Part shown: positions 56,375 through 64,000 of the stretch, piece by piece
Layout of the letters: each line of letters begins with the position of its first letter
Numbering within the stretch: position 1 is the first letter of the stretch
Origin: Euglena gracilis
Taxonomy: Eukaryota
NCBI GenBank assembly: GCA_039621445.1
Contig: CP154954.1
Span: 30,880,395 to 30,944,394, forward strand
Length of the DNA: 64,000 nucleotides
Direction: 5' to 3'
The notes under the pieces: model-generated
What the model was told of the DNA's origin: nothing
What the model saw: only the letters and a program-made list of their open reading frames with translations
Database searches by the model: none
Translations under genes and position numbers: made by a program

Positions 56375-57143
56375 CAGACTAGCCTGAAATCCGGTTCGTG
56401 ATTGTTCGTGATTGTTCGTGATTGTTCGTGATTGTTCGTGCTTCCAAAAAACCGCCCGGTTTTCTGTTTTCCTTGGCCAAATTGGTCATTCCTCTTGTAC
56501 TTTGGCCTCTTGTGCCTCCTTTAATTTAAATATTCAGGTCAATGGGGAAAGCAAAAGATCAACGAGGAGGTCACTGCAGCTTGGCGCAAATACACTTCAG
56601 CTCTTTTCAGTTCTCACAAAATCGACAGACGTGATGTATGCTGTAGCTTGGTTCTTTGGGCAACCACCATGAGCTAAAGTTTGGGTTTTCCCATCTTTTG
56701 ATGATTCTTGGCATCGACGAGACTGGTGAGGCTGAACGACCGTTCCACAGCGGCGGAGGGGACAATGCCAATGAACATCTTGCTAACAATATGGGAAGTA
56801 CAAAAACGAAGGACAGATCTCTATGACGATTTCACTTCCATCACTCCACCAAACTGAAAAAGGTGACAAAAACAGGGAAATCAAAACAAGACAGGTATGA
56901 CACCTGGGCAGCACCCTTTTGAGGAGTCATTTTGCCACCTCTCTTTCAAGATCTTTCTTCTTTGGTTGATTGAACGGCACCGTCCTTTTCAGAAGAAGAC
57001 ATTTCTGCAAAGGTGACGAAAAAATCCGGTTCGTGATTGTTCGTGATTGTTCGCGATTGTTCGTGATTTTGCCAAAGTCCCAAGTTCGTGCTGGTTCGTG
57101 ATTGTTCGTGATTGTTCGTGGCACGAACCGGTGAAAAACCCTG
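56375..57143. mobile_element. hAT-type MITE with (GTTCGTGATT)n subterminal arrays
   Basis: CAG...CTG; perfect TSD CTCTCTAC. Confidence 0.8.
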
Positions 57144-57727
57144 CTCTCTACACACCATGGACACCATCTCAAGGACTCCGCACCCTGTTGCCCACGGCTG
57201 AATTCCGCTGCACACTTCGTTGGTCCCTCGGAATGTCTCTCACACCAATGGAATCCGATCCCAACCTCTGTCCCAAATGCTTTGGACCATCAGATTTTCT
57301 CGGACACCACCTCGTTTGGTGCAAATCAAACTTCATTACCCGGCGGCACGGGGCGGTCCAAGATTTTCTGACAACCACGACACAGAAGGCAGGATTTACA
57401 GCCCGTAAAGAACAACGAGCTGATGACCGTTCCCGGCCAGGGGACATCTTCATTCCTCGCTTGGACAGTGATGGACCCGTTGCAGTGGATGTGACAATCC
57501 GCCACACCCTTGCGCAAAGTCATCCGCCGCGGAGTGCAGAGAGCCTTTCACACTGGCAAACACGTCAGGAGGCAGAAAAGCATGCCAAATATGACGCAAC
57601 GTGCCAACGACAGGGCTGGCGGTTGATGCCATTTGTCATGGATTGCTACGGGGGCATGGGACAAGAAGCGCGCTCCTTGATTGCCACCCTCCTCAAGGCC
57701 CTTCTGGGGCAGCGGGAGGGGTGGCAA
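57144..57727 (+). pseudogene. 3' fragment of a second CRE-like element (CCHC plus PD-(D/E)xK restriction-like endonuclease)
   Basis: CPKC..H..C, RRHGAV, RPGDI, VAVDVT, EAEKHAKY and PFVMDCYGG motifs; no RT attached. Confidence 0.88.
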
Positions 57728-58254
57728 ATTTTCTGGCTGAGAAAGCGGAATTGTATTTTTTAAGATTTTTGAATTTGTTGGGAACCCCCGACCCTCACGG
57801 CTGTGTTGCCCGGGGGGGGGGGGAGATTGGTTGGTTATCACGGATATTGTGATTCGGTTTGGCGGCTCGGCTCGGATGTTGTGTGGCTGACTTTGGGTTT
57901 GGAGATTGGAATTCCTGGTTGGATTTGTTGAGGGCTTTTGCAGGCCTTGCTTTTGTGGAGGATTCATTTGTGTTGGAAAAACCTGGGATTTGATTGTTTC
58001 CCAAAAAAGAAAACCGAGTTCGGATTTTGCAGACTTCGGTTTGGATTTTGAGAACTGTGATTTTCATGGAACATTCGAACTCGGGGGGAGCGGTGGACCC
58101 TCCTTAGTTCAGGCCCTGGTGTGTGGGCCATTTTCTGGGAGCCACGTGTTGCGGCTGAGGGCCAAACGGATGCCCTGTGATTTTTTGTTCATTTTTTTGG
58201 TGGGCCAAAGGCAATGGTTATGCCCCCGTGCTGGAGTGCCACATTACCTGCAAG

Positions 58255-58886: not shown

Positions 58887-60170
58887 CCTGCAAGTTCACC
58901 ACCATCCAGACGAAGTTTAGATGAAGTGACTTGGGCCATGCGTGGGGAACAATCAGGACTCAGGATTTGCCAAGCGAATTCCCACAGGTGTTTTTGTTTG
59001 CCCTCCCATGGGGGGTGGTTCGGGTCACGGGGGGGTCACGGGGGGGGGGGGTCGCGGGGGGGGTCACGGGGGGAACACCACGTTTTTGGTAAGAAAATTA
59101 GGAATCACCGAGCCTGAATTTTTGGGAAAAATTTCCACAAATTAGGAATCCCCACACCCAAAATTAGGATTTTGACACCAAATTAGGAATCACCAAGCCA
59201 AAATTTGAAAAATTTACGCCTCAAGAAGGAATCTGCCTGAGAATTTTATCAAATTAACGTGACCCCCCCCTTATATGGCACCCCCCAGGGAGCGTTTTGA
59301 CCCCCCCTGGCGACAATTAGGGGTGGGTGACAATTAGGGGTGGGGGTACTCAATTTACCCTACATGTCCATGGGTCCATGGGCACCCCCACCCCTAATTG
59401 TCGCCCCCCAAGGGGAGGGGCGACAATTAGGGGTGGGTGACATATAGGGGGGGGGGTCACGTTAGGCATCACCGGCCAAAAATTTTCCATAAAAAAATTC
59501 GCCGAAAACGGTCCTTGTTCGGGTCACGGGGGGGTCACACACGGGGGGAACACCCCCCCAGATCGTCCCGTTTCAGCCCCCCCCCCCCGAACCAAGTGCC
59601 GTTTTTGCCCCAGTTCTGCCCTCAAGATCTGACACCACAGCAATGAAGTGGCTTTCCGGGTCCTACCTCAAAACAAAGCACATTGCCGATTTTTCAGGCA
59701 CTTTTTCAGGCATTGAGGCACTCAACTGACATCCCACAATGCCCCAGAACGCTCCCAATGTCCGCAGCCATGCCAACGCCCCCACGATAATGTCGCGTGT
59801 TTCTGCTTCCATGAAGCAGAATTCCGCTTCATCGACGCCAGTACTTAACTTTTTGATGGTATCCTTGTTGGGTAAGTTGTCTATACAGCAGGTCTGCTTG
59901 AGAACTTTCAATAGCAATCTGTCCAATTTATGGACTTAACCATTAATACAACCCAAACGTTTGTGGACCAACCCCGGGGGGATCTCAAAGTGCCAGAAGT
60001 GCCTGGGGAGGCAGTACTTTTTTTTTCTTGGCGGGAAGGTCTTCATTTTTCAAAGTTCAAAGGATCTTGATTTCACACGATGTTTGACTACACCACCTAC
60101 CTCACCTTTCCTCATCTCTGTCTATCGACGATTCGGTATTCATCCTCTCCCCCCTCCCCGGTGGCAAACC

Positions 60171-63100
60171 ATGATCCTCCTCATCCGTCGGCCTCCCACA
60201 GCATCACGAATGTGCTCCTCCCCCTCCTCCTCCCCGTTGCTCCTCTCCTCATTACCACTGCCTCCGATTTTTCCCGAATCCCTGGTGGACTGGCACAAGT
60301 CTTTCAAATGGATAACCCAACACACCTCGTCCCCGGTTTTGGCCTTCCGGGGCCGCCTATTTGTCTTCCATCAGCACACGCTATGGGACACCCGCTTCCC
60401 ACCGCCAGCACCGTGCTCCTCTTGTAAGGAGTGGCATTGGCCTTGGCTTTGCTCATCCGTGCTACCGCGCCGGGCAACAGTTCCGCCACGTCCGGCGTTC
60501 ACTCGCTGCGCCTTCCGCTTTCCCACCTCCGTTCGGGAAAGCTGGCTGCCGCCCTTTTCCTCCCTGTCCGCCCTTCTGCGTTCTGGCAGAGGTTTCGCCT
60601 TGCTCTCCTGCGGCGACATTGAGAGTAATCCTGGGCCCACCTCCAATCGAGACTCCGCCAAAAAGACTCGCCAGAGTCGGGAATCACATGCCCCCACACC
60701 CTCTACACCCCACACTGGTTTGTCTCAGGAAATGGCTTTGGCCTCCCTCTCCCCCACACCATCCTCCCCGGCAGCAACGGCGGAGCAAACCGGCATGCCG
60801 TCTGACCCTGGTCCGGGATTTTCTTTTGCTTCACATGATACCTGCCCATTTGCTGATTGCCCACGGTCACGGACAACCATGACCCGTTCTCAGGTCCCAT
60901 CTCACGTCTCTCAACACGTCGCGGCTGGAAGAATACCCACCCCCGACTTCTTGCGGGCCACTGCCACCACGACTTGCGCCGTCTGTCGGACCTTACTGCG
61001 AGCCAGAGAACGTTGTCAATGCCCCCACCAGGGTGCTCCAGCCGTCCACGCCTCCTCACACCCCTCCTCCCCACTTCCCTCTTCATCGCTCCCACCCGTC
61101 GGGGACGGCACTCCCCTTTCCCACCCGTGCCCAGATCTGCAGCCCGATCTGCAGGTGGTTCTCTCCACCATCTGCCCCACTCTCCGACATATTCCCTTGT
61201 CATGTCGTCATGCGATTTCTGACGCCTTGGCATCTGCCATTCAGACCTTTCTCCGTGCACAAACCTGGGAATCTCTACACCGCCTGTTCATCTTTCCAAA
61301 ACTCGATCTTGGTGCCCCTCCCAAAAACTCGTCTTACCATCAACGCACGTTGCATTGCCTCTTGGAGAAGAGACTCTCTCAATGGCATGCAGGGGAGATT
61401 GCCGCCCTGTTTGAACCCCTTCGCTCTGACGGACGGCGAAAACGTCCCAGCACCCGTGCCAACCCCTCTAACGCTGCTTCTGATTCTGTGGCGCGCGGTC
61501 TTCTGGACCAGGTGCGCGGTCTCGTTGAGGAAGGGGCTCTCGGCAAGGCTGTAGACGCTCTAACCTCTTTGCCCTTGGCATCCTCCGGGGACCCAGCAGT
61601 TCTAGAGAAACTCCTCTCACTCCATCCACCGGGGTCTCCTGTCCGAGCCAACTTGCCGCTGCCTGGGGCAGGCAACATTCCACCAGCTGCTGACTTCAAC
61701 TGGACTTCAATTATGCAAGAAGCCGCAGCCTCTTTCCCTCGCGGCAGCGCCCCCGGCCCATCTGGTCTCCGTCCACAACACCTTCGGGACTTGTTGGATC
61801 GCGAGGCAGGTGCAGGCCCCTTGCACACAGCCCTGGGGTCCCTGGCTCAGAGGGCCTGGGAAGGCTCTTTGCCAGCAAATGCATCGATCATTTTTGGTAC
61901 ATCCAACCTAATCCCACTTACCAAAAAAGATGGTGGGCTCCGGCCGATCGCTGTGGGGGACTGTCTCCGCCGTTTCATTGGGAAAATGCTGTTGCGACAT
62001 CCGCAGTGCAAAACGGAAACTTCTCAGCTGTTCCCGAGGCAATTGGGAGTGGGGATTCGGTACGGTGCGGAGACAGTGGGGCTTGCAGTGCAGGCTGCGA
62101 TAGCCTCTCTGCCGGTTGATGGCGACTGGGTCGTTTTTCAGGCTGACGTTTCCAATGCCTTCAACACCGTTGACCGATCTGCCTTCCTACAAGCATCCCT
62201 GGACCTGTGCCCGTCCCTATACAATTGGCTCCGATTTTCCTACGGGGAAGATGTCCCGCTTCTGTGCCAGGGCGAAGTGGTATGTCACAGCAGGACCGGC
62301 GTCCATCAGGGGGACACCTGTGGGCCCATTGCCTTTGCCTTGGGTCTGCACCAGGCACTGCAACAGGCTTCGGCCGCCTTGCCTAACACGGTGTGGCAGG
62401 CGTGGTACTTGGATGACGGAACTGTCATCGGCCCTGCCATTGATGTTTTGCCTTTCACAGCTTCTCTAGCCACGGCACTCGGCTCAGTTGGGCTCCGCCT
62501 CAACCCCTCTAAATGCGCCCTGTGGGACCAGGTGTACCCTGTGCCACCCCGAAACCCCCAGCCCTTCAGATCCTCCCTCCCGAGCACCTTGCACAAAACT
62601 TCCCAATCACTCCCTGGGGACCGGGAACTGGCATCCTGTGCCTTGGAGTGCCATGTGACTACCCCGGTGACAGCACCTTCTCCGACACTACCTGGGCCAA
62701 GGCATCCGAAAAATTTCAAGCTACCATCTCGTGCCTCCAACAGCTGCCGGACCCCCAACTTCAACATTGTTTACTACGCAATTGTCTGGACGGCTGTCGC
62801 GTGACACACCTGCTACGTCAAACAAACATTTCCTCTGGTACAGAGAGTGTGCAAATGATCTCAGATTCTATCCGGCGTGCGGCCTGTGACATTGTGGGAG
62901 CACCCCTGTCTACCCTGCATTGGAACCAAATCACCTTGCCATGCAACAAGACGGGATGGGGTATCACAGACCCCTCGTTGGAAAGACCAGCTGCCCGTCT
63001 GGCTGCCTGCGTGGGTTTTTCCCAACGGGCGCCTGGCTTCAATATCCCTCCACTCTGGTGCTTGAAGCCGCTACCAGACACCATCCCTGTTGCCCAATTG

Positions 63101-63608
63101 GCTCGTGATATGGGCCCGCACGGCGAACCACTGGCTTCCTGGATCGCCAACCCTTCCTCCTTGGCTCATTCCACCCCAGATCATTCCACTCAATCGTGGT
63201 GGGCCGAACGTTTCCACGTCGTTCGCGTGGCAACCCTGGAGGAAGGTGCACCTCTTCGGGACATCGCCAGACTTCGTTGTCAGTCCTCTGCCTTCCTCCA
63301 GAATTGGATGACCGTCCTACCGTCCAGGTCGGTGAACACTGTCCTAGCACCGGACGAATACAGACTACTATTGCGCTTCTGGACCGGTTTGCCCCTTATC
63401 CCAACAACAGATATGCTTTTGTGCCCCCTGTGTGCTGAGGCGGTCGATCCGTTCGGTGACCACCTCCTGGCTTGCAGGAGGAATGGCATAACAGAAAGAC
63501 ACAACTGCGTTCGCGACGCCATCTTTGATCTCTGCCAACGCTCAGGCATCACCCTGCGCAAAGAACAGGGGTGTGAGGCTGGCACCCGTGACGCAGATCT
63601 CCTCCTCC
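60171..63608 (+). mobile_element. CRE-clade non-LTR retrotransposon: CCHC peptide, 2A, Zn finger, RT, CCHC, RLE; one frameshift; 3' part interrupted
   Basis: RT motifs SAPGPSGLRPQHL, LIPLTKKDGGLRPIAVGD, QLGVG..GAE, DVSNAFN, GVHQGD..GP, WYLDD and GLRLNPSKC. C-terminal CPLC..H..C, RHN and RDAD motifs. Frame changes near 62525. Confidence 0.92.
60561..60638 (+). other. 2A-like ribosomal skipping (StopGo) sequence
   Basis: SLSALLRSGRGFALLSCGDIESNPG-P matches D(V/I)ExNPGP with an upstream hydrophobic stretch, in frame with RT. Confidence 0.85.
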
Positions 63609-64000
63609 CAGGGTTGACGTTTTTTTTGTTTTTTTAAAAAAAAACAAAAAACATGTTTTTTTAAAAAAACACAAAAAACATGTTTTTTTGAAAAAGCAAA
63701 AATTGACCTTTTTCCTTGTGAAATACCCATTTTTGAAGAAAATTTTTCGGGGGTGGTTCGGGTCACGGGGGGGGGGGTCACGAGGGGGGTAACGGGGGGA
63801 AGGGGGTCACGGGGGAACATCACATTTTCGGTGGCCAAATTAGGAATCACCAAAAACGAATTTTTTGGGGAAAATATTTTTTAGGCTCAAATTAGGAATC
63901 CCCAACCTAAAATTAGCATTTTGACACCAAATTCGACATCACCATTCCAAATTTGGCGAAATTTATGCCTTAAAATTAGGAATCAACCTGAATATTTTGT
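63609..64000. mobile_element. MITE inserted in the CRE endonuclease, running off the window; related to the repeat at ~59000-59560
   Basis: Starts CAGGGTTG and shares GGGTCACGGGGG and AAATTAGGAATC motifs with the 59 kb copy. Confidence 0.7.

Follow-up and report, generated by a model that had tools for sequence, protein, structure and literature searches.

The window analysed here (64,000 nt of Euglena gracilis contig CP154954.1) carries near its 3′-end a truncated copy of a retrotransposon that lacks long terminal repeats (non-LTR type), with a reverse transcriptase (RT) followed by the start of a restriction-like endonuclease (RLE). A virus-like 2A (StopGo) motif lies in the same open reading frame (ORF), at a site upstream of the RT. 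The motif is a real and conserved recoding signal, of predicted skipping activity, that sits in a dead copy. We propose that the RLE-type lineage to which this copy belongs probably uses StopGo sites similar to T2A of Thosea asigna virus to free accessory modules from the RT-RLE enzyme.

The codons 60585–60638 (plus strand), in the ORF frame 59961–62804, translate as GRGFALLSCGDIESNPGP, and the span 60561–60638 given in the initial annotation translates as SLSALLRSGRGFALLSCGDIESNPGP. The predicted skip falls between Gly (60633–60635) and Pro (60636–60638), with the junction at 60635/60636. After this Pro, the ORF stays open for 722 codons up to the stop at 62802–62804. The back-translated D(V/I)ExNPGP pattern matched once in the 64-kb window, both strands included, and none of 100 dinucleotide-preserving shuffles of the window gave any match. 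This single match, the shuffles and the recurrence of the motif among relatives indicate that it did not arise by chance. GDIESNPG↓P (60612–60638; ↓, predicted skip) is canonical at every position and has the core of a class A 2A. The Leu-containing upstream part GRG-xx-LLSC, kept in 22 instances of the family, gives it the length of that class (approximately 18–22 residues; PMC12338488, cited, like most papers below, from the portion of its text available). PMC8623073 counts the nonamer GDIESNPGP among the “classical” viral 2A motifs, and a cypovirus example with this nonamer (BmCPV-1) showed approximately 99% “cleavage” in Table 1 of that paper. The initial annotation had reported an in-frame D(V/I)ExNPGP upstream of a zinc finger, RT and RLE; translation and the pattern count confirmed the motif, and the mapped domains (Table 1) confirmed its position.

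To collect relatives of the element, all of 1.84 billion representatives were scanned with phmmer; of the 9226 matches, the best 150 were kept. A homologue search with window residues 1–330, which are Pro/Ser-rich, found none among the best 8000 candidates, and a search with the whole window protein gave at least two matches, at the RT level only. The strict D[VI]E.NPGP pattern was present in 10 of the best 150 relatives. Of the best 150, 40 extend for 150 residues or more upstream of the conserved block before the RT, and 10 of these 40 had a 2A-type motif. The RT-region tree (FastTree) was built from 122 of 151 rows after exclusion of 29 rows with a cut RT, including P0008, P0010, and P0109. 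It placed the window in a 20-row clade (SH-like support 98) with P0004, P0006, P0012, P0014, and P0018. Five relatives in this clade reach far enough upstream, and four of them have a 2A; P0014 begins inside one.

Three more relatives were added, which brought the total to 28 2A-like instances. An upstream GRG is shared by 22 of the 28, spread over 11 proteins (including the window protein) that are otherwise 30–40% identical. The family consensus is P-R-T-G-R-G-x-x-L-L-S-C-G-D-[I/V]-E-S-N-P-G↓P. Over the 22 GRG-type instances, PGP is invariant, and G(-5), D, and E are kept in 21, 20, and 21 instances, respectively. In the alignment of ten family members, nothing other than the 2A block is conserved on the way from the N-terminal domain to the pre-RT block. 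Such invariant or nearly invariant residues in flanks that cannot be aligned therefore indicate selection on the peptide.

The family form GRG-x(1–2)-LL(S/T)CGD(V/I)ExNPG↓P fits T2A (PMC13431600). The second 2A of P0008, a relative with tandem 2As 22 residues apart, equals the T2A printed in that paper at 15 of 18 positions. Its 10-mer GRGSLLTCGD lies within the T2A sequence of that paper and is present in 128 papers. The carrier of T2A is an RNA virus, whereas the carrier here is a retrotransposon, and in the window copy GRG and LL are one residue further apart. Viral contigs gave 55 matches to the pattern, none of them a relative. P0018 has two 2As of another form, W-x-R-D-L-T-x-D-G-D-V-E-x-N-P-G-P (residues 176–196 and 525–545), which fits the “hybrid class A/B” motif given for viruses in 10.64898/2026.09.24.754024.

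The relatives showed which modules the 2As set off. Pfam reported a partial Dam domain (PF05869) at the N-terminus of P0004, P0006, P0012, and P0109, and PF05869 matched six of seven cut-out modules of approximately 140 residues (best E 4.5e-9). The NPPF motif occurs in 8/8 Dam-bearing relatives (P0004, P0006, P0008, P0012, P0109, and P0156–P0158); the window keeps the last ~28 residues of the Dam-like part, without NPPF. In all eight, the stretch from the Dam module to the zinc finger (ZnF)-RT-RLE part contains one or more 2As. P0156 and P0157 have three 2As each (two ahead of the Dam module, one behind it), and P0158 has, besides one HPGP variant, one 2A ahead of the module and two further NPGP ones behind it. 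A full SLBP-type domain (SLBP_RNA_bind, for the histone-mRNA stem-loop) was found in P0157 (residues 290–359, 72 bits) and a weak SLBP match in P0156 (residues 153–189, 20 bits), both directly before the first 2A. From these positions around Dam and SLBP in P0156–P0158, it follows that the 2As bracket folded modules. The SLBP-type domain is a candidate analogue of ORF1p.

The AlphaFold2 model of P0006 residues 1–136 (7-sequence alignment) had a pLDDT of 75.6 and a pTM of 0.71. Cap-specific adenosine N6-methyltransferases headed its fold matches (E 7.5e-4, TMq 0.62), ahead of other adenine and rRNA methyltransferases. Since the best structural matches are thus no DNA methyltransferases, the Dam-like module could conceivably act on RNA. 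By sequence, the Dam-module profile found no match in the PDB. The Atlas search gave generic RT clusters only, plus a Dam lead at score 0.85.

The initial annotation had read an upstream protein of 155 codons from the ATG at 60171. This ATG is present, and the final Pro of the 2A is codon 156 counted from it. Window 60114–60650 is colinear with residues 106–285 of the 1294-residue P0006 (BLASTP, E 3e-21) and also aligns with residues 50–238 of P0008 (BLASTP, E 2e-19). The ATG falls in the conserved “...PPP.W...I..P” end of the N-terminal Dam-like domain. Because the copy is 5′-truncated inside a Dam-like domain that full-length relatives carry, the alignments indicate that ATG 60171 is not the true start of the element, and the 155-codon protein is an artefact of the truncation. 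The proposal of two proteins made by recoding stands in part: the conserved 2A and the real modules upstream of it in relatives speak for it, skipping itself is predicted, and the 155-codon product has to be dropped.

The profile of the family, searched against the PDB, matched R2 proteins best (E 1e-9, 1.7e-9, and 1.6e-7), with LINE-1 ORF2p behind them (E 3e-4 to 1.4e-3); the single sequence of P0006 had no PDB match with phmmer. Pfam found no apurinic/apyrimidinic-type endonuclease (APE; Exo_endo_phos) in the window ORFs or in 48 relatives. The hallmark set of the R2-type RLE is CCHC, RH, PD, D/E, K..KY, and RG.W (PMC4838377). CCHC, RH, P(A/G)D, D-x-T, and K..KY are present in full-length P0004, P0006, and P0013 and in a second fragment of the window (57164–57763), and the RLE profile matched 83 of 151 family proteins. 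The assignment to an RLE-type non-LTR element without APE, nearer to R2 than to L1, is therefore supported by these motif and profile comparisons and agrees with the type given in the initial annotation. The comparisons reach no further than this type, and the CRE-clade placement of the initial annotation is tentative.

R2/RLE-type elements (R2Bm, PMC4838377; clades, PMC4640811) share with the window family a single ORF, N-terminal zinc-finger-like motifs, an RT, a CCHC, and apparently the endonuclease motifs RH/PD/D/K..KY/G.W. The likeness to R2 is remote, and the window family is highly repeated and has N-terminal modules delimited by 2As. No ribosomal DNA or spliced-leader target was seen for the window family; SLACS and CZAR, of the CRE clade, insert site-specifically in spliced-leader genes (PMC5814959). 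Other repeats surround the window copy. Rfam, with spliced-leader RNA among its families, gave no match in any part of the window, and a dinoflagellate spliced-leader motif had no match in it either. With both of its ends cut off, the copy has lost its insertion junctions.

In the proposed mechanism, the nascent 2A would stall the ribosome while an intact element is translated. The upstream chain would be released after Gly with an ...NPG tail, and synthesis would resume from Pro. The N-terminal accessory modules (Dam-like with NPPF, and SLBP-type in one relative) would be parted from the zinc-finger-RT-CCHC-RLE protein, and one ORF would thereby behave as an ORF1/ORF2 or ORF1/ORF1b/ORF2 system. 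The accessory proteins would be made apart from the RT and probably in larger amounts. The skipping of the peptide bond, the product ratio, and the role of the released modules are all predictions from the sequences. We speculate further, and tentatively, that the elements form an R2-group-like RLE lineage organised like a picornavirus polyprotein, in which up to three T2A-like sites yield an SLBP-type protein, one more module, an N6-adenine methyltransferase with NPPF, and ZnF-RT-RLE. If this is true, the methyltransferase, which among solved folds comes closest to cap-adjacent m6Am RNA methyltransferases, might mark RNA or cDNA of the element itself. The architecture would be undescribed and would tie the T2A peptide type to retroelements.

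Several points weigh against the proposed use of the 2As. Activity was deduced from sequence only, and the window copy, which has no start and is cut at both ends, is unable to express the arrangement. In RNA run X24 (~6% of the run), the depth was at most ~2 over the RT/RLE and 0 over 60220–61083, which includes the 2A; the RNA run gave 73 reads, only two of them at ≥99% identity and none on the 2A. The RT tree came from FastTree only, without bootstraps, and some long branches were flagged in it. One informative clade member, P0013, has no 2A, and 30 of the 40 informative relatives have none, some of them with large N-terminal domains (UCH, PHD). The relatives are predicted proteins from metagenome or transcriptome contigs. 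In 10.64898/2026.06.17.732966, 59% of the tested ORF2p-associated 2A-like peptides cut protein abundance, and this was proposed as their main function in retrotransposons. The peptide might accordingly be chiefly a translational brake, lowering RT-RLE via stalling, drop-off, or quality control and not yielding two useful proteins. The same preprint reported reduced abundance for 70% of the tested ORF1p-associated peptides, and termination at the 2A is one possible outcome in Luke et al. (PMC3894237). Tandem 2As, such as those of P0008, would reinforce a brake. However, the placing of the 2As is not random: they consistently flank folded modules (Dam-like, SLBP). The peptide is also close to T2A, which is a translational skipping motif in the reporter-virus construct of PMC13431600. 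We consider that the 2A is unlikely to be chiefly a brake; braking and protein separation are compatible and do not exclude each other.

The motif could also be an inactive relic or hitch-hiker, that is, a captured viral fragment or a 2A-resembling linker with no recoding role. Many substituted non-LTR 2A-like sequences are inactive (Odon et al. 2013, PMC3708506), a highly active 2A was present in only 7.4% (43/580) of RT-element contigs with a putative 2A (10.64898/2026.09.24.754024), and HPGP and other variants occur among the family instances. The window motif, however, is unsubstituted at the canonical positions, and the selection on the peptide seen over the 22 GRG-type instances makes a relic quite improbable. 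It is more improbable still that the single ORF is an artefact of chimeric assembly or nested insertion, joining an unrelated 2A sequence to RT-RLE. The window region is a mosaic of repeats and the relatives come from short assembled contigs (3–8 kb), which would favour such an artefact. Against it, the Dam tail, Cys/Trp motif, 2A, conserved block, and RT follow one colinear order in the window and in independent relatives, and the element is covered by contigs in their thousands, taken from three organisms, with a depth that goes up at ~60076–60115. Release of accessory modules by T2A-like StopGo sites thus remains the probable reading.

The use of 2As by retrotransposons has precedents. In the available text of Odon 2013 (PMC3708506) and Luke 2013 (PMC3894237), retrotransposon 2As belong to APE-type clades and REL-endo elements appear as background only; a review of T. 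cruzi elements assigned a 2A to L1Tc only. L1Tc/ingi, Rex1, L2, L2A, Crack, and CR1 (Heras 2006 as cited; PMC3708506) also have GD(V/I)ExNPGP in the N-terminal part of a long RT ORF, and control of protein biogenesis from one ORF was proposed for them, as here. They are APE-type and have a short leader, whereas the window family is CCHC-RLE (APE in 0/48 relatives) and often has two or three 2As with upstream Dam-like and SLBP-like products. The preprint 10.64898/2026.06.17.732966 described 2A-like peptides in ORF2p-like proteins “from algae to fish”, most with APE, including Dualen/RandI. In the Haematococcus lacustris ORF2p elements, Dualen/RandI among them, the 2A-like peptide follows N-terminal deubiquitinase/PPR domains. 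Accessory domains are thus separated as in the window family, although the domains themselves differ. Dualen/RandI has an RLE like the window family, but it has an APE too, and none was found in the window or the 48 relatives.

The Dam-like module also has counterparts. DAM domains borne by transposable elements have an Asn-Pro-Pro-aromatic catalytic core (10.64898/2026.05.21.726589), and the DAM retrotransposons described there (DIRS, DAM-LTR) have PF05869, this motif, and shortness in common with the module of our relatives. The carriers in the main text of that preprint are DIRS and LTR elements, whereas here the carrier is a non-LTR RT-RLE element with the module set off by 2As; its available text makes no mention of 2A peptides, skipping/StopGo, or endonuclease. 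Another preprint (10.64898/2026.09.24.754024) listed 580 RT-element contigs with a putative 2A, ~79% of them non-LTR-like, and the main text, as far as available, does not mention endonuclease, methyltransferase, RLE, or SLBP. In the literature portions available, no 2A was found tied to RLE-only elements or to a methyltransferase module, and the supplements or figures of recent surveys may list these proteins. The novelty is therefore narrower than claimed in the initial annotation, since, according to the 2026 preprints, many non-LTR-like elements have 2A-like peptides, Dualen/RandI with RLE and APE among them. A 2A in non-LTR elements was already known; what sets the present case apart is an RLE-type lineage with multiple T2A-like sites and with methyltransferase-like and RNA-binding cargo.

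The features of the window copy are listed in Table 1. The C2H2-like pattern had no Pfam match in the window copy; similar patterns are present in P0012, P0013, and P0114, and Pfam zf-C2H2 was found in 1 of 39 scanned family members. Pfam RVT_1 corresponds to ORF residues 584–785 (E 2.5e-11). Past the RT motif ending in ...NPSKC, the homology moves to the frame open from 62513, so that the RT-to-RLE part is readable only with a frame change at 62523/4. Both frames are without stops across 60114–63606 apart from this one frameshift. The RLE domain is broken off at ~63606–63612, with low-complexity A/T runs beyond.

Table 1. Features of the truncated retrotransposon copy (window positions; ↓, predicted skip)
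Feature	Position	Strand	Evidence
Last ~28 codons of N-terminal Dam-like (N6-adenine methyltransferase-like) domain	60114..60197	+	BLASTP vs P0006, P0008; Pfam PF05869 in relatives
Conserved Cys/Trp-rich motif LWD..PP..C..C..W.WPW.C.S.LP, between Dam-like domain and 2A	60381..60467	+	Common to P0006, P0008
2A/StopGo peptide GRGFALLSCGDIESNPG↓P	60585..60638	+	Translation, pattern count, family conservation
C2H2-like pattern C-x4-C-x14-H-x3-H, first motif of downstream product	60843..60917	+	Translation
Second Cys cluster C-x2-C-x9-C-x-C	60975..61028	+	Translation; aligns with P0012, P0114
Conserved N-terminal extension and RT	61146..62525	+	Pfam RVT_1 core 61920–62525; YLDD 62403–62420
Frameshift, one-base length difference from most other family copies	62523..62524	+	Contig alignment, frame map
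Post-RT thumb/linker, second frame	62524..63421	+	Frame map, relatives' alignment
CCHC knuckle (63422–63475), RH motif (63494–63517), RDAD, first RLE catalytic motif (RDADLLLP, 63587–63610)	63422..63610	+	Translation

The contigs of three DNA runs (4224, 748, and 345 contigs; organisms coded A, B, and C) were aligned to the stretch. The 4224 contigs in one run showed that the element family is highly repeated. Six run X1 contigs carry a shared different sequence upstream of 60115, in frame with the ORF, and one run X19 contig, the single such row among those listed, runs past 63606 with other sequence. Diverged genomic copies hold the frame over the 2A site (a 464-nt contig piece of ~80% identity and a 405-nt piece, both with 0 gaps). 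Among the 40 of 719 variant rows listed, none lies within 60410–60667. The window copy is dead, although of no great age: it is 5′-truncated at ~60115, frameshifted once at 62523/4, and 3′-truncated at ~63606.

The DNA loci of distant relatives (24–41% identity) mostly have ~120–200 open codons ahead of the conserved block, without a 2A. The canonical 2A motif was found in none of 80 metagenome loci and in one of 57 loci on contigs from prokaryote metagenome-assembled genomes (MAGs), namely L105. That relatives with a short N-terminus lack the 2A is in keeping with a function in setting additional N-terminal modules apart. Further relatives have UCH, Ulp1, PHD, Prim-Pol, or MLLE domains. The motif of L105 (L105:123) is GDGDVEANPGP with an upstream GRG. 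L105 belongs to a set of 57 RT-RLE loci (L081–L137) of this eukaryote-type family on contigs filed as bacterial MAGs (Entotheonella, Poribacteria, Dehalococcoidia, and Nitrospirales among others), a filing that is likely due to contamination of the bins with host DNA. Three of the 80 metagenome loci (L034:5561, L035:546, and L052:1804) carry W-G-[LY]-R-G-V-R-V-G-E-A-x-[N/H]-P-G-P ~440 nt upstream of the pre-RT block. Judged by its relative position, which matches that of the window 2A, this W..RGVRVGEA variant may be a divergent 2A class.

The second 5′-truncated RLE fragment in the window (57164–57763, plus strand) comprises CCHC, RH, PGD, D-V-T, and K..KY and then a stop. Its identity is 39% with the 2A-bearing element and 57% with the RLE of P0156 (multi-2A, Dam-bearing). 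By these identities, the genome has at least two such families. Tandem arrays of the 10-nt unit GTTCGTGATT lie just upstream of the second fragment (56377–56453 and 57012–57133). The 2A-bearing copy is flanked by a repeat of ~250 nt (59013–59260 and 63745–64000, ~4.74 kb apart), which consists of G-rich GGTCACGGGGGG units followed by AATTAGGAATCACC-type units. Three low-support contigs of one run (shorter side 22–26 nt) join ~59538–59549 directly to ~63749–63761, and these joins may stem from an arrangement that lacks the 4.2 kb in between. Positions 59550–59931 hold another segment, repeated to a very high degree, with a word depth up to ~1.2e5 in run X1 and a sharp end at ~59929–59931; RNA reads over it, whose first mates are on the minus strand, reach a depth of ~11. 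In window 1–59000, 129 stop-to-stop ORFs had 120 codons or more, and only two of them had a Pfam match (RRM_1); nine long window ORFs had no Pfam match. The window is gene-poor and repeat-rich.

In the literature text available, 2A recoding was tied to APE-type LINEs and discussed as a stand-in for a separate ORF1. The same device in “ancient” single-ORF RLE-type elements would mean that it is not confined to the APE branch. The 2A is repeated here, bracketing methyltransferase-like and RNA-binding modules, and non-LTR elements join the carriers of Dam-like domains, which were so far described in DIRS and LTR elements. Natural 2A peptides are short and hence readily testable in reporters. The family offers a concrete model of how single-ORF elements may deliver accessory proteins apart from, and in excess over, the RT.

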